Source: Candidatus Moraniibacteriota bacterium
GTDB taxonomy: Bacteria > Patescibacteriota > Minisyncoccia > Moranbacterales > UBA2206
Assembly: GCA_026396175.1 (NCBI GenBank)
Contig: JAPLXG010000013.1
Location: 65,267 to 129,266 of the forward strand
Length of the DNA: 64,000 nucleotides
Reading direction: 5' to 3'
The notes beneath the pieces were generated by a model. That model did not search any database and had not been told where the DNA came from. It worked only from the letters and a program-made list of their open reading frames with translations. This document shows positions 3,545 to 63,076 of this stretch, in pieces. Numbering within the stretch: the first letter of the stretch is position 1; each line of letters begins with the position of its first letter. A program made the translations under genes and the position numbers.

Positions 3545-3770
3545 TCTTAGGACTTATGCGCTTGAATAGATTTGTCATCCTGAGCGGAGTCCGTACTCGG
3601 ACGCAGTCGAAGCCTGCCTGCCGGTAGGCAGGGATCTACCGACTATTATCGCTGGCTTAGTGATACATAGTAAGACCTAGGATTATCACAAGCAGATCCT
3701 TCGACTCCGCTACGCTTCGCTCAGGATGACATGGTTTGGTTATTTTTTTTGCAAATGCGTAAGTCCTAAA
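3545..3770. repeat. MITE-like long hairpin element, family A (copy 1)
   Basis: Terminal inverted repeats ttaggacttatgcg...tgtcatcctgagcg // cgctcaggatgaca...gcgtaagtcctaa. The interior contains the REP palindrome cctgcctgccggtaggcagg. Three more copies sit at 38633, 45219 and 62901. Confidence 0.6.
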
Positions 3771-4860: not shown

Positions 4861-4917
4861 TTTTCCATTATACAACACAAAACAAAAAAAATCCAATATT
4901 GGATTTTTTTGCTTTTA

Positions 4918-5095
4918 GTGCGCCCACCAGGATTTCCGCCAGTGGGCGGATGACCGTTTGCTTAAAAGTCCGCCGGCTGGCGGATCTACCAGCGAGTTTT
5001 TTATTTGTGCGCCCACCAGGATTTCCGCCAGTGGGCGGATGACCGTTTGCTTAAAAGTCCGCCGGCTGGCGGATCTACCAGCGAGTTTTTTATTT
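4918..5095. repeat. two tandem units of about 89 bp that are degenerate tRNA-Lys copies disrupted by palindromic inserts
   Basis: The units at 4918-5006 and 5007-5095 share tgcgcccaccagga... and ...ccgtttgcttaaaag... with the authentic tRNA-Lys next door. The T-arm and anticodon-arm segments are replaced by the palindromes tccgccagtgggcgga and tccgccggctggcgga. Confidence 0.6.
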
Positions 5096-5096
5096 G

Positions 5097-5170
5097 TGCG
5101 CCCACCAGGATTCGAACCTGGGACCGTTTGCTTAAAAGGCAACTGCTCTACCAGACTGAGCTATAGGCGC
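5097..5170 (-). tRNA. tRNA-Lys (anticodon TTT)
   Basis: The minus-strand sequence gcgcctatagctcagtctggtagagcagttgccttttaagcaaacggtcccaggttcgaatcctggtgggcgca folds as a cloverleaf (7-bp acceptor, D-arm agctcagtctggtagagc, anticodon loop cttttaa, T-arm ccaggttcgaatcctgg). It is close to canonical bacterial tRNA-Lys. There is no encoded CCA. Confidence 0.8.
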
Positions 5171-5183
5171 ATGGTTTAAATTT

Positions 5184-5232
5184 AAGACCGTTTACTTAAT
5201 AGTCCGCCAGCCGGCGAATCTACCAGACTGAA
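5184..5232. repeat. tRNA-Lys-derived fragment with palindromic insert (left direct repeat flanking the GIY-YIG gene)
   Basis: ccgtttacttaatagtccgccagccggcgaatctaccagactgaactaacg is about 85% identical to the right-hand copy at 5519-5580. Confidence 0.5.
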
Positions 5233-5511
5233 CTAACGACATAAATTATTATTTTCTATTAAATTTTTTACAAACATTCTTCCTTGACAGCTTTTTAATT
5301 CCTTTTCTCTTTTCATTGCTTCACCCCTACTTCCAAAACTTTCCTCGTAAATCAACTTCCAGCATCCACTATTCTTACTCGTAAACGATGTCTTCTTATT
5401 TTTTAATACTCCATTATGTCTCAACAACCTATTTTCTAAATCAGCAGTCTGTCCAATATAGATCGCGTCTTTTTCTTTATTGTAAATTACGTAAGCTTTA
5501 AACATACTCAC
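5233..5511 (-). CDS. GIY-YIG nuclease domain protein (small, Slx1/YhbQ-like)
   Basis: 92 aa. The N-terminus AYVIYNKEKDAIYIGQTADLENRLLRH carries the GIY...YIG...R motif, followed by the conserved E (EAMKREKELK). Confidence 0.8.
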   Translation of the reverse strand: MSMFKAYVIYNKEKDAIYIGQTADLENRLLRHNGVLKNKKTSFTSKNSGCWKLIYEESFGSRGEAMKREKELKSCQGRMFVKNLIENNNLCR

Positions 5512-5518
5512 TTCCTAG

Positions 5519-5580
5519 GACCTTTTGCTTAATAGTCCGCCGGCTGGCGGATCTACCAGACTGAGCTATAGGCGCATAAT
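5519..5580. repeat. tRNA-Lys-derived fragment with palindromic insert (right direct repeat flanking the GIY-YIG gene)
   Basis: ccttttgcttaatagtccgccggctggcggatctaccagactgagctataggcgca ends with an exact copy of the 5' end of tRNA-Lys. Confidence 0.5.
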
Positions 5581-5729
5581 TCGATTTTATGACAACTTTG
5601 CCAGTATAAACACTAAAAAACTTTCCGTCAAGGAGTTTTTCGCTTCAGTTATTCGCTGCGCGAACCCCCGCTACGAATGGGGGACATGCGAATTGTTATT
5701 TTTTGAAAAATTATATGCTAAAATCTGCC

Positions 5730-10519: not shown

Positions 10520-10885
10520 TTAATCCACCCGCTCCAACATCAAAATTCTTTTCCGAAATCCGCCTCTTTTCTCCGCTTTTTCTTTTTGCACTTTTTTGAC
10601 TGTTTCCCAATCCAGTCCGCTAAACTCAAGAATGGTGTCAAGTAGTTCCGTCACGTCACTCATCTCTTCGATCAAATGCTCCTTGTCCGTTGTGTTGGCC
10701 AGCTCATTGGCTTCTTCTTCGACTTTATGCAACAGATATTGCAAATATTCCTTATCGTCTTCGAGGATTCTCGTTTTCACTTTCTGGCCTTTTAATTTTT
10801 CCACAATCTCAGGAATATTATCCCGCACAAGTTTGGGATATTCATTTTCTTTTTTTAGGTCTGTTTCAAAGTGTTTGAAATTCAT
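10520..10885 (-). CDS. MazG-like nucleotide pyrophosphohydrolase (HisE-like all-alpha NTP-PPase)
   Basis: 121 aa. YPKLVRDNIPEI, EEANEL, EEMSDV and LEFSGLDWE match the MazG/PRA-PH helical fold motifs. Confidence 0.7.
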   Translation of the reverse strand: MNFKHFETDLKKENEYPKLVRDNIPEIVEKLKGQKVKTRILEDDKEYLQYLLHKVEEEANELANTTDKEHLIEEMSDVTELLDTILEFSGLDWETVKKVQKEKAEKRGGFRKRILMLERVD

Positions 10886-10948
10886 AGAATTTGTCTCAAA
10901 AGATTAAACCATTGACAATAGAGCCAAAGTAGCCTACTTTAAATTTTA

Positions 10949-11081
10949 CAGGATTAAGGATAAAAATACGAGAGCCACAAAACACCGAGGAATCGTTGGT
11001 ACAATCAAACTTGCTATGCTTTTGAGGCAAGGGCGAACCAACTCGACGGGTGCCAGAGTATAACCTTAATCCTGTTTTTTT
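10949..11081 (+). ncRNA. candidate structured small RNA (unknown family)
   Basis: A long-range closing stem (caggattaagga...taaccttaatcctg) around a central region of about 100 nt, followed directly by a T-run (ttttttta). It lies in a 245-bp gap with no ORF. Confidence 0.25.
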
Positions 11082-13700: not shown

Positions 13701-13916
13701 ACATATTGGTTAGCGATACTTTGCATCATTTATGTCGATGCCTAGCACGCCTTACTTTAAATAATTTTATTATAATTCTAAATTTTAAATTAGTCCTCAA
13801 AGGATAAGCTTGGGGCAAAAAATTTTAAACCAATATCAAATGCTAAATTTTTAAATCATTAAAACATTTAATAATTTAGCCTTCATTTCAAATTTTAAAT
13901 TGCAAATTTCAAATTT

Positions 13917-15442: not shown

Positions 15443-15600
15443 TGTCATTCCCGCGAAGGCGGGAATCCAGGTTCCGCTAGCCATAGACTCTGAAAAATCG
15501 AATTATAAATCCCCCAACTTTTATTTTCTAACAAGCAAATCTCGCTTTTCTTTTTTTATAGCCTGAGGCGCCTGGATCCCCGCCTCCGCGGGGATGACAC
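15443..15600. repeat. MITE-like element, family B (gtcattcccgcgaaggcgggaatccag TIRs)
   Basis: Left end gtcattcccgcgaaggcgggaatccag, right end ctggatccccgcctccgcggggatgac. The same termini flank an 87-bp in-frame insert in elp3 (52504-52590). Confidence 0.55.
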
Positions 15601-17405: not shown

Positions 17406-17472
17406 AAATAAGTTTACCCCCGCATTCGTAAATTAGCTATCCACTTTTAGTCTAAAATTTAGATAAATTTAT

Positions 17473-17616
17473 GGCTTACGCGTTCACCAAAATCAATCTT
17501 TAAAGCGCGGGGTATTTCAGAGTTTGTTTTTTGTTTATTTTAGCCCCCAAAATCATTGGGGTTTTCTCAGCTTAATCTTGGCTATAGAAAAGCTTGCTTT
17601 TGGCAAACGCGTAAGC
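17473..17616. repeat. hairpin element with ggcttacgcgtt / aacgcgtaagcc termini
   Basis: Inverted termini sit about 130 bp apart and enclose an internal hairpin, cccccaaaatcattgggg. The gcgtaag motif also appears in the family A element flanks. Confidence 0.4.
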
Positions 17617-17624
17617 CTTGAAAT

Positions 17625-18065
17625 CTAAAGTCCCATCACTTGGATGATGATATCGCGCTTTCTCGCGCCGTCCATTTCCGCCACAAAAATATTCTGCTTG
17701 GAAGTAAGGATCATATGCCCTTTTTCCAAGGGAACCGTTTCACTGACTCCCAAAAGCATCACCTTACAATGCGAATGACCGTTGCTCCTCCCATCCGATT
17801 TATTTTTTTTAGCCAGCTCAAAAAGATCATGGGAATAGCGCTCGTCAACCGGCGCCAAGCGATAGAGTACACGGGTAAAGTCTTGCAAAAGCATCGGTTC
17901 GTTGTGATTGACGAAAATTCCAGCCGAAGTATGCGGAGAATAGATCAGCACCGTCCCTTCGCGTACGCCGGAAAGACTGACCACTTCCGCCACCTTGTCG
18001 GTAATGTCAATAATTTCCACACTTGTGGTGCTGGTTATTTCGATTTTTTTGCGGAATATTTTCAT
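17625..18065 (-). CDS. YjbQ/UPF0047 family secondary thiamine-phosphate synthase-like protein
   Basis: 146 aa. Pattern IDITDKV...SPHTSAGIF...HSHCKVMLLG...TSKQ is typical of the YjbQ family. Confidence 0.7.
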   Translation of the reverse strand: MKIFRKKIEITSTTSVEIIDITDKVAEVVSLSGVREGTVLIYSPHTSAGIFVNHNEPMLLQDFTRVLYRLAPVDERYSHDLFELAKKNKSDGRSNGHSHCKVMLLGVSETVPLEKGHMILTSKQNIFVAEMDGARKRDIIIQVMGL

Positions 18066-18175
18066 ATTATTATCCGATACGAAACTACGAATTGAATCCG
18101 AATCTACGAAAAAAATTCAGTAGCATTTCGTAGAGTTCGTAGATTCGCATATATTTCGTTGTTTCGAATCGGTTA

Positions 18176-19300
18176 TTATTTTTTAAACACGCCCGCCACC
18201 TTTTTGACCACGCTTTTATCCAGCGCTCTTGGAATTATTCTATCACGAGTTGGCTTTTTTACCAAACTGGCAATCGCATAGGCGACTTTAATTTTATGCT
18301 CTTCGGTAATTTTTTTAATTTTATTATCCAACACGCCACGAAAAATTCCCGGAAACGCCAAAACATTGTTAATTTGATTGGCAAAGTCCGAGCGGCCAGT
18401 CGCCACAATGCGCGCGCCACCAGCTTTGGCACGGTCCGGCAAAATTTCCGGAATGGGATTAGCCATCGCAAACACAATTGAATTTTTATTCATCTGCGCG
18501 ATATCTTCTTCCGTGAGAATATTGGGCGCTGAAACGCCAATAAACACGTCCGCGAGATGAAGTGCGTCACGCACATTACCTTTGACATTTTCCGGATTCG
18601 TAATTTTGGCAATTTCCATTTTTGATCCATTAAGCCCACCCGCTCTTTCTCGATAGATTATCCCCATCCGATCGAGCATAATGATATTTTTCGCCCCCGC
18701 TTTAATGAGCAATTTGGCAATCGCCACACCCGCCGCGCCTGTCCCGGAAATGACAATTTTAATTTTTGCTAAATCTTTTTTAACCACTTTCAACGCATTG
18801 ATGAGTCCGGCCAGAACCACAATCGCCGTCCCATGTTGGTCATCGTGGAAAACCGGAATATCCAATTCTTTTTTCAAGCGTTCCTCAATCTCAAAACAAC
18901 GCGGCGCGCAAATATCTTCCAGGTTTATTCCGCCAAAAGTTGGCGCCAGTGCTTTTATTATTTTAATAATCTCCTGCGTATCTTGCGTCGCAAGCACAAT
19001 CGGAATCGCATCCACTCCGGCAAGTTCTTTCATCAGCAAAGCTTTGCCTTCCATCACCGGTAGCGCCGCTTCTGGACCAATATTGCCCAGGCCTAGTACC
19101 GCCGAGCCATCAGAAATCACCGCCACAGTATTTTTGCGAATGGTATATTGAAAAGATAATTTTTTATCCTTGGCAATTGCCTTCGACACTTCCGCCACCC
19201 CCGGAGTATACAAAACCGCCAGATTCTTATCTGTTAATTTAACTTTACTGCAAATTTCAATTTTCCCGCCGATTTTTTTGGAAAGCTTAATTGAATTCAT
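18176..19300 (-). CDS. NAD(P)-dependent malic enzyme (short form)
   Basis: 374 aa. LAVLYTPGVAE, NIGPEAALPVMEGKALL, the Rossmann stretch ISGTGAAGVA, and FAMANPIPE are present. Confidence 0.9.
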   Translation of the reverse strand: MNSIKLSKKIGGKIEICSKVKLTDKNLAVLYTPGVAEVSKAIAKDKKLSFQYTIRKNTVAVISDGSAVLGLGNIGPEAALPVMEGKALLMKELAGVDAIPIVLATQDTQEIIKIIKALAPTFGGINLEDICAPRCFEIEERLKKELDIPVFHDDQHGTAIVVLAGLINALKVVKKDLAKIKIVISGTGAAGVAIAKLLIKAGAKNIIMLDRMGIIYRERAGGLNGSKMEIAKITNPENVKGNVRDALHLADVFIGVSAPNILTEEDIAQMNKNSIVFAMANPIPEILPDRAKAGGARIVATGRSDFANQINNVLAFPGIFRGVLDNKIKKITEEHKIKVAYAIASLVKKPTRDRIIPRALDKSVVKKVAGVFKK

Positions 19301-20811: not shown

Positions 20812-20878
20812 AAATTTAAAAAATTAAAAATTATATTTGTATATTCGTACATTCGTACAAATTCGTAATTCGTAGAGA

Positions 20879-37026: not shown

Positions 37027-37160
37027 CTACGAATTACGAACAAATACGAATGTACGAATAAATGCGAAATACTTTAAGAAAAATTAGGCTCAGTTTAAAT
37101 TATATTCGTACATTCGTACAAATTCGTAATTCGTAGAGAAAACCGTAATTCGTAGAGAAA
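37027..37160. repeat. TTCGTA/TACGAA hexamer-rich repeat array just upstream of cysS
   Basis: tatattcgtacattcgtacaaattcgtaattcgtagag recurs nearly identically at 20838-20877. Related arrays are at 18076-18175, 22813-22876 and 61160-61200. Confidence 0.5.
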
Positions 37161-38632: not shown

Positions 38633-38848
38633 CAGGACTTGCGCGTTTAAATTAAATTTGTCATCCTGAGCGGAGTCCTGTAATCAGGACGCAGTCGAAG
38701 GATCTGCTAACCGTAACCCATAGCTTTCTATTCGATATTAGGGCTTACGATAATGGAAAGTAGATCCCTGCCTACCGGCAGGCAGGCTTCGGCTTCGCTC
38801 AGGATGACATGGTTTAGTTGTTTTTAAACAAACGCGTAAATCCTAAAA
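38633..38848. repeat. MITE-like long hairpin element, family A (copy 2)
   Basis: aggacttgcgcg...tgtcatcctgagcg // cgctcaggatgaca...acgcgtaaatcct. The interior contains the REP palindrome. Confidence 0.6.
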
Positions 38849-45185: not shown

Positions 45186-45218
45186 TTAATTTGAAGTTAC
45201 CAGACTTTTAAATTTAAA

Positions 45219-45427
45219 ATGTCATCCTGAGCAAAGTCCGTACTCGGACGAAGCCGACCGCGTGCCGCCTTAGCTTTAGCGGTGGAGCAAGGATCTGCCA
45301 TCCACTACCGCAAGTTTTCTGTAATATAGTAAAACTTACGACAACCTATAGCAGATTCTTCGACTCCGCTGCGCTACGCTCAGAATGACAAGAGTTGTTT
45401 ATTTTTTCATGCAAATGCGTAAGTTTT
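45219..45427. repeat. MITE-like long hairpin element, family A (copy 3)
   Basis: atgtcatcctgagcaaagtccgtactcggacg ... cgctcagaatgacaagag...gcaaatgcgtaagtt. Confidence 0.55.
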
Positions 45428-45430
45428 ATT

Positions 45431-51957: not shown

Positions 51958-53667
51958 ATGCTTAAAGCTTACGACAATTTCGTTAAACTGGCAATGAAAG
52001 AACCCGTCGCCACTTCCGGCGAATTTTTGCGCGTTAAAAAAAATGTTTCCAAGATTTTGCAACTTCCCGTGCCGACCAACGCTGATTTGCGCGAGGCTTA
52101 TGAAAAATTAGTTGCGGGGAAAAAGATCAAAAGAAACCCAGCTTTCGAAAAAATTCTCATCAGCAAAAAAATCCGTACCCGCTCCGGCGTGGCCGTCGTC
52201 GCCGTTCTCACCAAGCCCTATCCTTGCCCCGGAAAGTGTCTCTATTGTCCGAGCGAAGCCAAGATGCCCAAGAGCTATCTCAAGAATGAGCCGGCAGTTA
52301 TGCGCGCCATTTCTGTGAAATTTAGCCCTTACAAACAAGTGCAAAAACGTCTCCACGCACTGGAATTGAACGGTCACAAAACCGACAAAATCGAGCTGAT
52401 TGTGATGGGTGGCACTTTTTCCTATTTTCCCAAAACCTATCAAAATTGGTTTATCACGGAATGTTTTCGGGCGGTGAATGAATATGGCAAAAAAATCAAA
52501 AGTCCCTTTCTTTGTCATTCCCGCGAAGGCGGGAATCCAGTGTGTAAACTTAAAGATGCGAGACTAGATTCCCGCCTTCGCGGGAATGACATTAACTGTG
52601 CGGTTCCTAAATCGATTATTAAAAATTTAAAAAAGGACCTTTTAACCGAACAGAAAAAAAATGAAACTGCCAAGCGCCGGATTATCGGCTTAACCTTGGA
52701 AACCCGCCCGGATTACATTTCCGAAAAAGAAATTTTGAATTTTCGCACGCTTGGATGCACGAGAGTGGAGCTTGGCGTGCAAAGTGTTTTTGATGACGTG
52801 CTCAAAAAAAATAATCGCGGGCATAACGTGGCCGAAACAATTCGCGCCACAAAACTCTTGAAAAACGCCGGCTTTAAAATCAACTACCATATTATGCCGG
52901 GACTTTATGGCTCAGATGCTTTGAAAGATTACCAGATGTTCAAAACTCTTTTTTCCTCACCAGACTTCCAGCCAGATATGCTCAAAATTTATCCCACAGT
53001 CGTTCTTCGCGATAGCGCACTCTACTCGGCGTGGAAAAAGGGAAAGTATCAGGCCTTGGATGATAAGCAATTTGAAAAATTTATTCTGCGCGTGAAAAAA
53101 AATCTCATCCCGCCCTATGTCCGCATTGCGCGCCTGGTGCGTGATGTCCCCGCCGAATCAATCATCGCTGGACCACTCGTCTCAAACTTACGTCAAATGA
53201 TTGCCGAAAAATCCCAGTGCCTGTGCATCCGTTGCCGAGAGGTGGGGGGGGATTTTAGCCCAAATGAAGGCATCGTTCTAAACCGCATAGATTATGATGC
53301 ATCAGATGGAAAAGAGATATTTTTAGAATACGCGACAAAAGACACAAAAAAACTATTTGCTCTTTTGCGCCTACGTATAAATCCGCTTGAATTAGAAAAT
53401 CGGAAAACCACAGTTCCCGCCCTCAAAAACTCCGCCATCATCCGCGAGGTGCATACTTATGGAACGATGACGCAAATTGATAAGAAAAATAGTAAATCAC
53501 CGCAACATATCGGCCTCGGAAAAAAACTAATCGCCGAAGCCCAAAAAATCGCCAAGCAGGAATTCGGTCTCCAAAAAATCGCCATCATTTCCGGCGTTGG
53601 CGCCCGCGAGTATTACCGAAAACTAGGTTATCGCTTGAAGGATAGTTATATGGTAAAATGTATTTAG
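51958..53667 (+). CDS. Elp3-like radical SAM / GNAT acetyltransferase (tRNA U34 carboxymethyltransferase homologue)
   Basis: 569 aa. Radical-SAM cluster CPGKCLYCPS, a C-terminal GNAT fold, and an 87-bp family B palindromic element inserted in frame (residues ...SREGGNPVCKLKDARLDSRLRGNDI...). Confidence 0.85.
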   Translation: MLKAYDNFVKLAMKEPVATSGEFLRVKKNVSKILQLPVPTNADLREAYEKLVAGKKIKRNPAFEKILISKKIRTRSGVAVVAVLTKPYPCPGKCLYCPSEAKMPKSYLKNEPAVMRAISVKFSPYKQVQKRLHALELNGHKTDKIELIVMGGTFSYFPKTYQNWFITECFRAVNEYGKKIKSPFLCHSREGGNPVCKLKDARLDSRLRGNDINCAVPKSIIKNLKKDLLTEQKKNETAKRRIIGLTLETRPDYISEKEILNFRTLGCTRVELGVQSVFDDVLKKNNRGHNVAETIRATKLLKNAGFKINYHIMPGLYGSDALKDYQMFKTLFSSPDFQPDMLKIYPTVVLRDSALYSAWKKGKYQALDDKQFEKFILRVKKNLIPPYVRIARLVRDVPAESIIAGPLVSNLRQMIAEKSQCLCIRCREVGGDFSPNEGIVLNRIDYDASDGKEIFLEYATKDTKKLFALLRLRINPLELENRKTTVPALKNSAIIREVHTYGTMTQIDKKNSKSPQHIGLGKKLIAEAQKIAKQEFGLQKIAIISGVGAREYYRKLGYRLKDSYMVKCI

Positions 53668-54890: not shown

Positions 54891-54928
54891 AGCGGATTTA
54901 ACGAGCTTTCTTCCCAGCCCATCCCGCA

Positions 54929-55225
54929 CTAACTTTTGCTTAAAGATTTTTTCATTCTTCTTTTTAGCTGTCCTAACGCTTGCCCATATTGTTTTAGCTG
55001 TTTTTCTCTTTCCCAAGCATCCTCCTCTGCAAAATACGCCTCATAATAAACAAGGCGCCATTTATGTCCTTTTGTAAATTTAGAATCATTGTTATTGTGC
55101 TGAAAAAATCTTTTTTTCAAATCATCAGTACAGCCATAATACAATTCTTCATCTTCATTTTTTAGAACATACACATATTGCATACTCGTAAAAGCAAAAG
55201 TTAGTGCGGGACAAGCTGCCCGCAA
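54929..55225 (-). CDS. GIY-YIG nuclease domain protein (second copy)
   Basis: YVYVLKNEDEELYYGCTDDLKKR gives the GIY/YIG/R motifs, with EREKQLK downstream. It overlaps the rlmN start by 25 nt. Confidence 0.75.
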   Translation of the reverse strand: MRAACPALTFAFTSMQYVYVLKNEDEELYYGCTDDLKKRFFQHNNNDSKFTKGHKWRLVYYEAYFAEEDAWEREKQLKQYGQALGQLKRRMKKSLSKS

Positions 55226-56772: not shown

Positions 56773-57777
56773 CTAAAGTTCGCATAAATTAGCCAGCCGT
56801 GCAAATTCATCATTCACAATTTTTTGCACTTGAGCGAGGACTAGTTTATTTTTCTCCGAAAAAAGATGCTTGAACCGTCCTTGAGTTTTTAGAAATTCCG
56901 TCACCGGCTTCAATGTTTTCGGTTCCCAATTCAGTTTATATTTCCCATTTTCAATTTCATAGAGCGGCCAGAAATTTGTCTCTGTCGCCAATTTGGCGAT
57001 GGCGACATATTGCGAGGTGGGAAATTTCCAATTATTTGTGCACGGCGAAAAAACCGTGAGAAAACTTGGCCCATCGACAGCCAAAGCTTTTTTCGCTTTC
57101 ATTTTGAGATCAGCAAGGTTGGCAATATTAGCTTGTGCGACATAAGCAATATTATGCGCTGCCACAATTCCCATCAAATTTTTGCGCAGCTCGACTTTGC
57201 CAAAAGATTCTTTTCCGATTGGTGTCGTTTCCGTCGCGGCGCCATAGGGCGTGGCGGAAGATCTTTGATTGCCGGTGTTCATGTACCCCCCATTATCATA
57301 GACCACATAGAGAAAATTATGCCCGCGTTCAAATGCGCCAGAAAGCGCTTGGAGTCCGATGTCATAGGTCCCGCCGTCTCCACCAAAGGCTACGAACTTG
57401 ATTTTTTTCGGCAAATCTAATTTGCCGCCCTGAGCTTGTCGAAGGGTCCCGTCCTGAGCTTGTCGAAGGGTCCCGTCCTGAGCTTGTCGAAGGGTCCCGT
57501 CCTGAGCTTGTCGAAGGGTTTTTTTCCGTAAAGCAAGATAGGCTCGCTCCACACCAGAAATAGTCGCTGCCGCATTTTCAAAGGCGCTGTGAATATATGG
57601 CACGTTCCATGCGGTGTAGGGATAGATGGTCGAAGTCACTTCAAGACATCCCGTCGCATTGGAAATGACCACCGGAGTCGCCGCCTCACCCAAAATTGTC
57701 CTAACAATCGAAGGAAACGCGCATCCCGCGCAAGCACTGTGACCGGGAGCTAGGTTTTTTGATAAATTTTCGTTCAT
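56773..57777 (-). CDS. porB: pyruvate:ferredoxin oxidoreductase, beta (TPP-binding) subunit
   Basis: Cys cluster GHSACAGC and TPP motif GGDGGTYDIG. It contains an in-frame 24-bp tandem repeat encoding (TLRQAQDG) x4. Confidence 0.9.
   Translation of the reverse strand: MNENLSKNLAPGHSACAGCAFPSIVRTILGEAATPVVISNATGCLEVTSTIYPYTAWNVPYIHSAFENAAATISGVERAYLALRKKTLRQAQDGTLRQAQDGTLRQAQDGTLRQAQGGKLDLPKKIKFVAFGGDGGTYDIGLQALSGAFERGHNFLYVVYDNGGYMNTGNQRSSATPYGAATETTPIGKESFGKVELRKNLMGIVAAHNIAYVAQANIANLADLKMKAKKALAVDGPSFLTVFSPCTNNWKFPTSQYVAIAKLATETNFWPLYEIENGKYKLNWEPKTLKPVTEFLKTQGRFKHLFSEKNKLVLAQVQKIVNDEFARLANLCEL
57429..57520. repeat. 24-bp tandem repeat (about 3.8 copies) inside porB
   Basis: cctgagcttgtcgaagggtcccgt repeats head to tail. 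The unit contains the cctgagc / gtcgaagg motifs seen in the family A MITE termini. Confidence 0.8.
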
Positions 57778-60165: not shown

Positions 60166-60570
60166 CTATTTAATATTTACAATTCTTTTATATCTAATTC
60201 CGTCGTTGGTAAAATAAACCAAGATTCCTAACTTTAAATTCACTGCTTTGAGATAAGAATATAGTTGCTCTATATCTTTCTTGGAAAAATAATTCTTCTG
60301 TTTTAATTCGATAACAATCCTATCTAGAACCAAAAAGTCAAAAAGATAGTATCCAATTTCTTTGCCTTTAAACTTTACTCTTGCTTTTAACTGCTCCTTG
60401 AGGGTTATGCCGTTTTCAGTAAAAATATTAGCAACTGCTTTTTGATAAAACTTTTCTTTATGTCCGTAACCAACATTATTAAAAACCTCAAAAATAAGCC
60501 CGATAATTTTATAACACTCCTCTTTATAAATTAACTCCTCCCTTGCTCTCATTAGTATATTCGTACACAA
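60166..60570 (-). CDS. GxxExxY family protein (PD-(D/E)XK-like), inserted between porD and porG
   Basis: ECYKIIGLIFEVFNNVGYGHKEKFYQKAV...YLFDFLVLDRIVIELK matches the GxxExxY family pattern. Confidence 0.7.
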   Translation of the reverse strand: MCTNILMRAREELIYKEECYKIIGLIFEVFNNVGYGHKEKFYQKAVANIFTENGITLKEQLKARVKFKGKEIGYYLFDFLVLDRIVIELKQKNYFSKKDIEQLYSYLKAVNLKLGILVYFTNDGIRYKRIVNIK

Positions 60571-60587
60571 TTAGTAATTCGTAAAGA

Positions 60588-61157
60588 CTACACTACATCA
60601 TATGCCTTCTCAATCGCCAAAATATTCTTTTCACAATTTTCTTTCCCAATCTTATCTTCAAAAATCTTGCGGAATTCTTCGAGGATACTTTCCAGCTTCA
60701 CCACTTCGGTCACTTTGATGATTTTGCCCAAAATCACTGTGTTTGGCCTTGGTTGACCAACGATGGCCATGGAAATTCCATTGGCATCCACGGCGTGAAT
60801 TTTTCCATCAAAACGAATAATGTCCCTGATTTCATGCGGGTGCTTGGTGGAATTGATAATCAACGCTTCATTTTTGTCCAAGCCTTCCGTCACCTTCTGA
60901 CTATCGAGCAGTGTGTCGTCGAGTACAACAACCACATCCGGATCAACCACCGGCTCCTTGGTACGAATAGCCTTGTTCGAGATGCGCAAATAGGTCTTGG
61001 TCGGCGCACCGCTCCGTTCCGGACCGAAGTTAGGAAAAGTTTGCACAAAATTCCCTTCAAGCACCGCCGCCTGCGCAATAATTTCCGCGGCCGTCTTTGC
61101 CCCTTGCCCGCCCCGCGCAAAAAAGATAATTTCCATTGTGTCCTTGTGATACTTCAT
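60588..61157 (-). CDS. porG: pyruvate:ferredoxin oxidoreductase, gamma subunit
   Basis: FFARGGQGAKTAAEI matches the POR gamma N-terminus. An alternative start at MEIIFF is possible. Confidence 0.88.
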   Translation of the reverse strand: MKYHKDTMEIIFFARGGQGAKTAAEIIAQAAVLEGNFVQTFPNFGPERSGAPTKTYLRISNKAIRTKEPVVDPDVVVVLDDTLLDSQKVTEGLDKNEALIINSTKHPHEIRDIIRFDGKIHAVDANGISMAIVGQPRPNTVILGKIIKVTEVVKLESILEEFRKIFEDKIGKENCEKNILAIEKAYDVV

Positions 61158-61342
61158 GTAGTCTCTACGAATTACGAATTTATACGAATATACGAATTCA
61201 GTAAATTAAAAACAACATTTACTTACTAAGATAAGTATAGCACAAAAAGACACACAAAAATAGAGCTGAAATAAAAAAGCTGTTCCGAGTCATTCCGACC
61301 AAGAACAGCTCGATTATACCCGCAGCATCTACACCGGCGTAG

Positions 61343-62852: not shown

Positions 62853-62900
62853 AAAATTAGTTTAAATTTATTATTATGACTTAAGCATTTAAATTAAAAT

Positions 62901-63076
62901 TGTCATCCTGAGCGAAGCGAAGCGAAGTCGAAGGATCTACTTTCCATTATCGTAAGCTCTGTTGTTAAGTAGAAAGCCCTGGGTTACGGTTAGCAGATCC
63001 TTCGACTGCGTCCCGAGTACGGGACTTCGCTCAGGATGACAGAACTGTGTTGTTTTCCGGAAAATGTGTAAGTCCT
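62901..63076. repeat. MITE-like long hairpin element, family A (copy 4)
   Basis: ttgtcatcctgagcgaagcgaagcgaagtcgaaggatct ... gatccttcgactgcgtcccgagtacgggacttcgctcaggatgaca. Its central segment is the reverse complement of the central segment of copy 2. Confidence 0.6.

Follow-up and report, generated by a model that had tools for sequence, protein, structure and literature searches.

Intergenic hairpin repeats in a Candidatus Moraniibacteriota genome are probably gene-less inverted pairs of a divergent Ssn-related motif

The 64,000-nt stretch of a Candidatus Moraniibacteriota genome analyzed here (the window; contig JAPLXG010000013.1, positions 65,267 to 129,266) carries four intergenic hairpin repeats of about 210 bp. 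An earlier note on this DNA had described them as elements resembling miniature inverted-repeat transposable elements (MITEs) with a modular, invertible interior. All four copies were recovered where they had been placed, and their strictly intergenic position was borne out: copy 1 lies between frr and the gene of a BNR protein, copy 2 between cysS and a small open reading frame (ORF), copy 3 between an rluA-like gene and ispH, and copy 4 between a dsbA-like gene and a 153-aa ORF. The genes beside the four copies are housekeeping genes without a common theme. Three copies are located between genes on the minus strand and one between genes on the plus strand, and the orientation of the flanks on the plus strand is identical in all four units.

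Every copy forms a long imperfect palindrome around TGTCATCCTGAGCG...CGCTCAGGATGACA. The core sequence GTCATCCTGAGC occurred eight times in the window at 0-1 mismatch, corresponding to four inverted pairs that start at 3574/3719, 38660/38797, 45221/45378 and 62902/63029. Two more matches appeared at two mismatches, both unrelated to the elements; at this threshold (≤2 mismatches) dinucleotide shuffles yielded a mean of 2.46 matches, and 0 of 100 reached the observed 10. For copy 1, one long hairpin was predicted on the plus strand (-96.5 kcal/mol, z = -8.5), and the fold of the minus strand was of similar stability (-89.5 kcal/mol, z = -7.5). The long imperfect inverted repeats noted previously were confirmed, and an outer inverted repeat, AGGACTTAnGCG / CGCnTAAGTCCT, was found, which is degenerate in copy 3.

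From outside to inside, a unit consists of the outer inverted repeat, asymmetric spacers (about 11-13 nt and TTTAAATTAAAAT-like on the left; 24-26 nt and T-rich on the right), two arms and a centre of 56 nt. The arms start with TGTCATCCTGAGCG and end with CGAAGGATCT, and all eight arms of the window open with TGTCAT. Their motif can be written as TGTCAT-CCTGAGC-(loop)-CGAAGG-ATC, each element being an inverted pair of this motif with the heads pointing outward. The stem of an arm follows the order A-T, T-A, C-G, C-G, T-A, tandem G.A/A.G and G-C, and its loop is formed by a GCGNAGC mini-hairpin or by a longer hairpin insertion, the latter representing the 'ccgtactcggac' module of the earlier note. 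Insertions are tolerated by the arms, namely the small hairpin GTCCGTACTCGGAC between GAGCG and CAGTCGAAG and the palindrome CCTGCCTRCCGGYAGGCAGG between CGAAG and GATCT; in the window, 14-52 nt separate GAGC from CGAAG. The side hairpin is located in the left arm in copies 1-3 and in the right arm in copy 4. That the interiors share sub-modules was thereby confirmed, including CCTGCCTRCCGGYAGGCAGG with its seven window copies, and an assembly from nested smaller palindromes, which had been offered as one possibility, is supported. The seven copies of this oriented palindrome are found at 3613, 34482, 35764, 38767, 43781, 46592 and 53909; two of them lie within the arms of copies 1 and 2, on opposite sides, and five stand alone beside small G+C-rich hairpins.

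The arms of all four copies are similar to the published Ssn-related motifs (SRMs) that are introduced below. The unit of copy 1 (3549-3767) begins with the outer inverted repeat AGGACTTATGCGC (3549-3561) and an 11-nt spacer, followed by the inner element (3573-3731), a 25-nt T-rich spacer and the outer repeat GCGTAAGTCCT (3757-3767). Its left arm (3573-3637, plus strand) is composed of TGTCAT-CCTGAGCG, the side hairpin GTCCGTACTCGGAC in the loop, CAGTCGAAG and, at the inner end, the nested palindrome CCTGCCTGCCGGTAGGCAGG (3613-3632) and GATCT. The poorly conserved 56-nt centre (3638-3693) is oriented as that of copy 4, and the right arm (3694-3731, minus strand) reads TGTCATCCTGAGCGAAGCGTAGCGGAGTCGAAGGATCT. 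The copy 2 unit (38634-38844, outer repeats at 38634-38644 and 38834-38844) has a left arm (38659-38705, plus strand) with the side hairpin GTCCTGTAATCAGGAC in the loop, a 56-nt centre (38706-38761) corresponding to the copy 4 centre in reverse complement, and a right arm (38762-38809, minus strand) interrupted by the nested palindrome CCTGCCTACCGGCAGGCAGG (38767-38786). Copy 3 (45202-45427) is bounded by the degenerate left repeat (AGACTT, 45202-45207) and by GCGTAAGTTTT on the right (45417-45427); its left arm (45220-45296, plus strand) carries the side hairpin GTCCGTACTCGGAC and an extra 33-nt insertion before GGATCT, the 56-nt centre spans 45297-45352, and the right arm (45353-45390, minus strand) has one mismatch in the core (GTCATTCTGAGC). 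Copy 4 (62876-63076), with the outer repeats ATGACTTAAGC (62876-62886) and GTGTAAGTCCT (63066-63076), has a left arm (62901-62938, plus strand) with the loop GCGAAGCGAAGCGAAG and without side hairpin, a 56-nt centre (62939-62994) and a right arm (62995-63041, minus strand) with the side hairpin GTCCCGAGTACGGGAC, its inner segment being flipped relative to copies 2 and 3.

The interior is indeed modular and invertible, as had been proposed, since both orientations occur, even at an orthologous site shared by two related genomes (see below). The central parts of copies 2 and 4 are reverse complements of each other (38659-38767 versus 62933-63041), with 88% complementarity over 109 nt; their inner segments are 78% identical when reversed and 56% in direct comparison. 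The inverted segment takes in the side hairpin, so that all sequence between the 13-nt cores is flipped. When copy 1 is compared to copy 2, the reversal is confined to the part inside CGAAG|...|CTTCG. Inversion has taken place at more than one depth within the palindrome. The length of the centre between GATCT and AGATC was exactly 56 nt in all nine copies of the lineage (from the window and the relatives L205, L207 and L209). Sequence identity among the centres reaches only about 50-70%, with a weak dyad symmetry (2 x 28 nt), and analysis of the nine centres by RNAalifold did not yield a conserved fold (covariation term +0.18).

Comparison to the three syntenic relatives L205, L207 and L209 (IspH 82-86% identical) revealed that the elements are gained and lost at orthologous spacers. 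The ispH|rluA site, occupied by copy 3 in the window, holds an element in L205 and L207 and one of the same build, with canonical arms of the type called NTS (see below), in L209. The latter (10838-11041, corresponding to 45186-45430 in the window) has the arms GTCATCCCCGCGAAGGCGGGGATCC / GGATTCCCGCCTTCGCGGGAATGAC, which implies either an independent capture of the same spacer or a replacement of the motif type. The cysS|small ORF site of copy 2 is empty in L205 and L207, where the genes abut or overlap, and lies outside the sequence of L209. Conversely, the site between a radical-SAM and a methyltransferase gene, which lacks an element in the window and has a spacer of only 2 nt in L207, is occupied in L205 and L209, and upstream of rlmN, which was compared in L205 and L207 only, an element is absent from the former and present in the latter. 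At the radical-SAM|methyltransferase site, the flanks of L205 and L209 are 81% identical in the same orientation and the inner segment is 77% identical in reversed orientation only, indicating a flip in place. The outer flanks move together with the element. The comparison of occupied with empty sites, a check that the earlier note had called for, did not reveal any target-site duplication, the precision being limited by diverged junctions at which the exact ends cannot be placed. The two short-read Logan contigs that reach an element (L123, L204), which belong to the strain of the window, both stop inside it.

The family is not confined to this genome, and its core is common to many phyla. 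A scan of one genome per species with TGTCATCCTGAGC-N105-135-GCTCAGGATGACA identified at least 120 loci in at least 14 phyla, the matches listed including Chloroflexota, Acidobacteriota, Verrucomicrobiota, Planctomycetota, Bacteroidota, Gemmatimonadota, Actinomycetota, Bacillota, Pseudomonadota, Bdellovibrionota, Eremiobacterota, Ignavibacteriota, Lentisphaerota and Patescibacteria. Among the cultured genera in these matches are Hymenobacter, Granulicella, Taibaiella, Sphingobacterium, Reyranella and Bifidobacterium. In an alignment of 362 arms, conservation sets in abruptly at TGTCAT and continues through NAGCGAAGGATC; behind the head the conserved stretch runs on as GCG-N-AGCGAAGGATC, and the centres vary by lineage. 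GCGNAGC forms the loop in 152 of 360 arms, the remainder having mostly insertions of 14-64 nt at this position, and a loop of 3-5 nt was present in 150 of the 360 across phyla. Literature searches with sequence strings of the element returned unrelated primers or nothing. In some loci of other phyla (L046 2611-2900, L047 5850-6048, L024, L027), the arm unit (TGTCATCCTGAGCG...) forms an array of four to six tandem repeats to the left of one small central palindrome, with a mirrored array to its right and spacers that differ between the two sides; these arrays look like the result of repeated nested insertion or of symmetric expansion.

The arm itself folds locally, as indicated by covariation within 96 distinct short arms that were chosen on head, GA and tail only. 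The outer stem was fully complementary in 72 of these, compared to 14 on average and never more than 24 in 1000 shuffles of the stem partners, and eight compensated stem types occurred (TCCT/AGGA, TCCC/GGGA, TTCC/GGAA, TTCT/AGAA, TGTC/GACA, TTTC/GAAA, TGCT/AGCA and TGCC/GGCA). Opposite GA stands GA in 73 of the 96 arms, which makes up the tandem G.A/A.G. The loop sequence GCGNAGC is known as an extraordinarily stable DNA mini-hairpin (PMC13037366).

Palindromes of the sequence TGTCATTCCCGCGAAGGCGGGAATCC in the window were recognized as dRS3-like, and therefore the elements were compared to the dRS3 and Ssn literature. A longer oriented motif, NTS (CGTCATTCCCGCGMAVGCGGGAATCYRG), contains dRS3, and its variant NTSvar (CGTCATACTCGGG-N5-CCCGAGTATC) has been published; NTS and SRMs flank genes for single-domain GIY-YIG proteins of about 94 aa (SsnA) in many phyla (Chenal et al., 2025, PMC11893778). 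In the same study, an SsnA homologue was encoded by 81% of the genomes that have more than 200 canonical SRMs. On a single DNA strand, an SRM forms a small hairpin with an unpaired GTCAT head, which SsnA binds as single-stranded DNA (ssDNA) and cuts a few nucleotides upstream. The enzyme acts on the strand reading GTCAT only and is inactive on double-stranded DNA, RNA and the reverse strand, and in Neisseria the SsnA system restricts the integration of transforming DNA (PMC11893778). The same repeats had been classified earlier as 'CGTC-tagged REPs' (repetitive extragenic palindromes), in which the tag is often TGTC, the stem of 8-9 bp starts with A-T and most repeats are inverted dimers; some are nested in larger palindromes, some are intragenic, and no transposase is linked to them (Di Nocera et al., 2013, PMC3733652).

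The element arms share the head (TGTCAT), the A-T/T-A start of the stem and the ATC tail with NTS and NTSvar and differ in the stem (CCTGAGC/CGAAGG). All eight window arms possess the unpaired head (H)GTCWY that gives an SRM its orientation, and they are imperfect inverted-repeat hairpins of the kind described for SRMs (20-50 nt) with an RNCY tail (ATCT or ATCC), the loops being expanded in the window. The TGTC tag, the stem starting with A-T, the arrangement as inverted dimers and the lack of a transposase likewise agree with the CGTC-tagged REPs; their loop of 4-5 nt and their CCA tail were not found, the tail in the window being CTR. Canonical members of the superfamily are present in the window as well, as the published SRM pattern had three matches (15443, 52513 and 52564) at a shuffle mean of 0.1. 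One is a solo NTS/SRM hairpin, TGTCATTCCCGCGAAGGCGGGAATCCAG (15443-15470, plus strand); the other two form a miniature inverted pair of canonical hairpins (52513-52591; 52513-52540 on the plus and 52564-52591 on the minus strand) with a centre of 23 nt. This 79-nt pair is in frame within an ELP3-like radical-SAM ORF (51958-53667, plus strand), where it encodes ...LCHSREGGNPV...LDSRLRGND...; the ELP3-like orthologues in L205, L207 and L209 (83-87% identical) lack the roughly 21-34 extra residues at a variable loop. It resembles the in-gene Rickettsia palindromic elements.

An association between the motif and ssn genes became apparent at a Victivallales locus (L118), where a GIY-YIG gene is directly bracketed by the motif. 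Of 80 metagenome loci encoding relatives of this protein (46-100% identity), 55 had GTCATCCTGAGC (≤2 mismatches) at a distance of up to 250 nt from the gene, including 40 with the motif on both sides, at a chance expectation estimated at about 0.04 per locus. The motifs usually lie heads outward, 30-70 nt off each gene end, as inverted repeats of 25-35 nt. At the remaining loci, the variants GTCATTTCGAGC..CGAGAAATC, GTCATGTCGAGC..CGAGACATC or GTCATGTCGACC..TGGAGACATC or canonical NTS were found; two homologues (L150, L160) are flanked by the perfect NTS consensus, and the loci with canonical NTS therefore tie this protein clade to the published family. The clade proteins are of about 90-100 aa and contain only the Pfam domain GIY-YIG (PF01541), and the motif thus flanks single-domain Ssn genes, often on both sides, as described for SRMs. 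The arrangement extends to Moranbacteria: in L166 (P0177) and L219/L220 (P0181), which carry the NCBI name Candidatus Moranbacteria, and in L217 (P0225), whose sample also contained a close relative of the window organism, ssn is bracketed by GTCATCCTGAGC...CGAAGGATCT arms with loop hairpins as in the window, the arms reading GTCATCC(T/C)GAGC...CGA(A/G)GGATCT. L217 carries an additional ORF-less pair 1.3 kb away.

We consider it likely that the four elements are gene-less inverted pairs of a divergent variant of the CGTC/TGTC-tagged REPs, that is, of dRS3/NTS and SRMs. As part of the same explanation, they are likely non-autonomous relatives of the SRM-ssn-SRM unit without an ORF, similar to MITEs or to Neisseria intergenic mosaic elements (NIMEs), in which a 56-nt spacer takes the place of the gene. 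The anatomy of the units, the association of the motif with the gene, the covariation in the local hairpin, the gain and loss of elements at orthologous spacers and inversion in situ were observed directly. Novel aspects are the stem variant with the G.A tandem, which lies outside the published pattern, its occurrence in many phyla including Patescibacteria, and the gain, loss and in-situ inversion of the units.

Several observations weigh against this assignment. A regular-expression scan of the window with the published pattern, HGTCWYN(0-2)YYVSBRHN(0-5)WNVSBRGN(0-2)RNCYNB, gave no match in the four elements. No ssn gene flanked by the element motif is present in the 64 kb, and two small GIY-YIG ORFs of the window (54929-55183 and 5233-5511) score only 51-55 bits against the Ssn profile, compared to 146 for a true member, making them distant relatives of the Ssn clade, and their flanks are unrelated to the motif. 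Nearest-neighbour folding of the local hairpin gave -2.7 kcal/mol, no better than shuffles. Support for the local hairpin thus comes from covariation and not from energy, as nearest-neighbour folding does not rate this hairpin; the parameters give no credit to sheared G.A pairs or GNA loops. The constant 56-nt centre, finally, is not accounted for by a model of SRM pairs. The centre of the ORF-less pair in L217 is 32 nt long, and between the 56-nt centre and the leader and trailer of the ssn unit a match of only 10 nt (TACGATAATG, to L217) was identified; a derivation of the centre from the leader/trailer is suggested by this match, but not conclusively.

The GIY-YIG ORF at 54929-55183 was considered as the cognate enzyme but does not appear to encode it: its relatives are always bounded by another inverted repeat (CCCGCACTAACTTTTGC), with no GTCAT motif nearby. 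The 84-aa gene lies on the minus strand just after rlmN, with the 17-nt inverted repeat CCCGCACTAACTTTTGC / GCAAAAGTTAGTGCGGG at 55195-55211 and 54921-54937, the downstream copy overlapping the stop codon. Homologues in L215 and L216 (75-77% identity) have the same inverted repeat, and the three genomes carry the gene at three different sites; from these sequences, it appears to be a different type of small, mobile nuclease cassette. The second ORF (5233-5511, minus strand; 92 aa) is situated amid tRNA-like fragments (region 4908-5600), beside an intact tRNA with UUU anticodon (5097-5170). Two tandem units of 89 nt at 4908-5085 resemble tRNA copies in which GATCCGCCAGCCGGCGGAC stands in place of the anticodon arm and an SRM-like hairpin, GGTCATCCGCCCACTGGCGGAAATCC, in place of the T arm. 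Searches of viral contigs with the two window GIY-YIG proteins returned no matches.

With regard to the mechanism, the arms would be recognized by an Ssn protein encoded outside the 64-kb window. Each strand of a unit would then offer one cleavable GTCAT-headed hairpin at the outer edge, and a strand that is exposed as ssDNA, be it during replication or upon uptake of transforming DNA, would present an Ssn site. Long inverted repeats that are nicked at the foot are a classic substrate for fold-back synthesis and template switching. Spread and flips may accordingly result from ssDNA breaks and hairpin or template-switch repair across the long inverted repeat, which would not require a transposase, and fold-back synthesis or template switching would account for the flips as well as for nested or mirrored arm arrays. 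A more far-reaching and rather unlikely possibility is that SRM-ssn-SRM units and ORF-less pairs represent a distinct class of mobile DNA driven by the GIY-YIG single-strand nuclease. The nuclease would nick ssDNA just outside the GTCAT head, and subsequent fold-back or hairpin-transfer synthesis across the palindrome would both carry copies of the element into new spacers prone to hairpin formation and invert its interior, similar to the flip/flop of parvovirus and poxvirus hairpin ends. If true, this would explain the sequence identity over 25 nt across about 14 phyla. Gain and loss, the in-situ flip and the nested or tandem-mirrored arms are compatible with such mobility but do not demonstrate it.

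Three other explanations were weighed, all of which are much less likely than gene-less SRM pairs. Roles as terminator or mRNA stabilizer have often been proposed for REPs, and a structured non-coding RNA gene or a cis-regulatory RNA hairpin of this kind, the former already raised in the earlier note, would fit the very stable folds predicted for both strands as well as the position of the elements, which fill spacers between co-oriented genes and have a T-rich tract after the right arm on the plus strand. We regard it as very unlikely. No Rfam family was found in the window elements or in 18 loci from other phyla; within the window only tRNAs passed the gathering threshold, and a single chance match was added at E-values up to 10. 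The centre has no conserved or covarying structure, and promoter-like or intrinsic-terminator-like sites tied to the elements did not exceed the shuffle expectation. In addition, the units share one orientation on the plus strand despite neighbours on either strand, and their inner part inverts freely. In the long fold, the conserved part makes up a perfect Watson-Crick duplex, but its covariation is that of the local fold typical of DNA, that is, the G.A tandem and the GNA loop, and the published partner enzyme acts on ssDNA and not on RNA (PMC11893778). A passive effect of the elements on mRNA stability or termination may occur. A self-cleaving ribozyme (hammerhead or twister), considered for the CUGAGCG and GAAG strings, was rejected as stem I is absent and no Rfam match was obtained.

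A classical MITE, in which TGTCA...TGACA would be terminal inverted repeats (TIRs) bound by a DDE (IS630/Tc1, IS5) or IS200/IS605 transposase encoded elsewhere and cut-and-paste would have spread the element into intergenic DNA, is highly improbable. In line with it, the elements are short, ORF-less and intergenic with inverted ends TG...CA, their presence varies at orthologous sites of relatives, and related genomes possess Y1_Tnp genes (L209 19785-20471, L215 1256-1936). Yet the palindrome and the copied unit run 25-40 nt past TGTCA, so the 'tgtcatcctgagcg TIRs' of the earlier note are not transposon termini, and inverted repeats at the true ends with a duplication of the target were not seen at the occupied sites. 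Nor was an autonomous partner with a transposase found: searches of the 64-kb window with two Moranbacteria Y1_Tnp queries (phmmer) detected no RAYT/Y1 gene, and Di Nocera et al. did not find a transposase linked to CGTC/TGTC-tagged repeats (PMC3733652). In place of the IS200/IS605 or IS630 transposase for which the earlier note had suggested a search, the gene adjacent to the repeat in 55 of the 80 loci is that of the single-domain GIY-YIG nuclease of Ssn type (about 90 aa), and an end of 25 nt that is identical across about 14 phyla is untypical of MITE/transposase pairs. What remains of the description as MITE-like is that the elements are ORF-less counterparts of a gene-carrying unit with the same inverted ends and are present or absent at orthologous spacers; the part concerning target-site duplication and a transposase partner is not supported. 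For the tandem arrays in L046 and L047, a DDE transposon end (TG...CA) with multiple binding sites was considered and rejected, because the palindrome continues outside the presumed end and the linked gene is a nuclease.

There is hardly any chance that the elements are invertons, i.e., phase-variable switches in which a site-specific recombinase acts on the inverted repeats to control a neighbouring gene: the interior does occur in both orientations against fixed flanks, even at one orthologous site, but no recombinase gene adjoins any copy, the flipped segment has no promoter-like site above chance, the neighbours are housekeeping genes without common theme, and the break points vary (13-nt cores in one case, CGAAG/CTTCG in the other), which fits recombination or template switching anywhere along the palindrome better than a fixed crossover site.

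Further repeats were noticed in the window. At 17468-17622, an inverted repeat similar to the outer frame of the elements (GGCTTACGCGTT ... AAACGCGTAAGCC) encloses 87 nt without a GTCAT motif between genes on the minus strand, and the outer frame may occur without the inner pair. Four tandem 24-nt units (CCGTCCTGAGCTTGTCGAAGGGTC) at 57425-57519 share CCTGAGC-N4-CGAAGG with the element core; they lie in a long ORF (56773-57777, minus strand) with a TPP_enzyme_C domain and may either be coding or precede its true start. Two more families are formed by intergenic TACGAAT-rich direct and inverted repeats and by A/T-rich AAATTTnAAATT arrays (18059-18187, 20840-20878, 37027-37139, 60556-60594 and 61159-61197; also at 13862, 36051, 42803 and 51897), which may represent promoter or operator regions.

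In practical terms, the elements are a frequent source of spurious small ORFs, and they break short-read assemblies, as seen for the contigs L123 and L204. The Ssn-type identity provides a testable partner, the ssDNA nuclease of about 90 aa, for a repeat of distant phyla that include the reduced genomes of Patescibacteria. Surveys based on the published SRM pattern would miss the CCTGAGC/CGAAGG form of the Ssn system, and this variant may serve as a new sequence specificity for ssDNA-cutting tools. Finally, the flip at an orthologous site together with gain and loss offers a tractable case for how tagged palindromic repeats move, a question that has been standing since REPs, dRS3 and the Rickettsia palindromic elements (RPEs) were first described.

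Among known systems, the Correia elements of Neisseria and the Nezha elements of cyanobacteria are MITEs that are similarly short, ORF-less, bounded by inverted repeats and intergenic, and their presence varies between relatives; unlike these, the window elements lack a target-site duplication, their ends lie beyond the conserved inverted repeat, and their gene-carrying counterpart encodes no transposase. In the REPIN/RAYT system (Bertels and Rainey), an inverted doublet of a tagged hairpin is likewise the replicating unit, and the same repeats flank one small nuclease-type gene acting on ssDNA hairpins, but the tag is GTAG and the enzyme an IS200-like HUH tyrosine transposase, compared to a TGTC tag and a GIY-YIG nuclease partner here. 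NIMEs also consist of two inverted small hairpin repeats around a variable unit of 50-150 bp and are intergenic and interleaved with small repeats. They occur as large arrays beside surface-protein genes and are flanked by dRS3 (ATTCCC-N8-GGGAAT), whereas the window elements are single units between housekeeping genes with another stem, the dRS3 sequence being found only at 52513-52591. The families of Di Nocera et al., which include dRS3 and Rickettsia RPE-4 and RPE-6, have loops of 4-5 nt, perfect stems and a CCA tail and were found in five phyla, mainly in Alphaproteobacteria (PMC3733652), in contrast to the mismatched stems, long loops and CTR tail of the window arms from Patescibacteria. 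Compared to SRM/NTS, the stem with tandem G.A mismatches (CCTGAGC/CGAAGG) replaces the perfect stem CCCGCG/CGCGGG, and the loop has often grown to 14-64 nt by an extra hairpin, unlike that of the canonical motif. Both have in common the unpaired (C/T)GTCAT head, the A-T/T-A start of the stem and the ATC(Y) tail, and both are intergenic, present in high copy number and arranged heads outward around single-domain GIY-YIG genes of about 90 aa.

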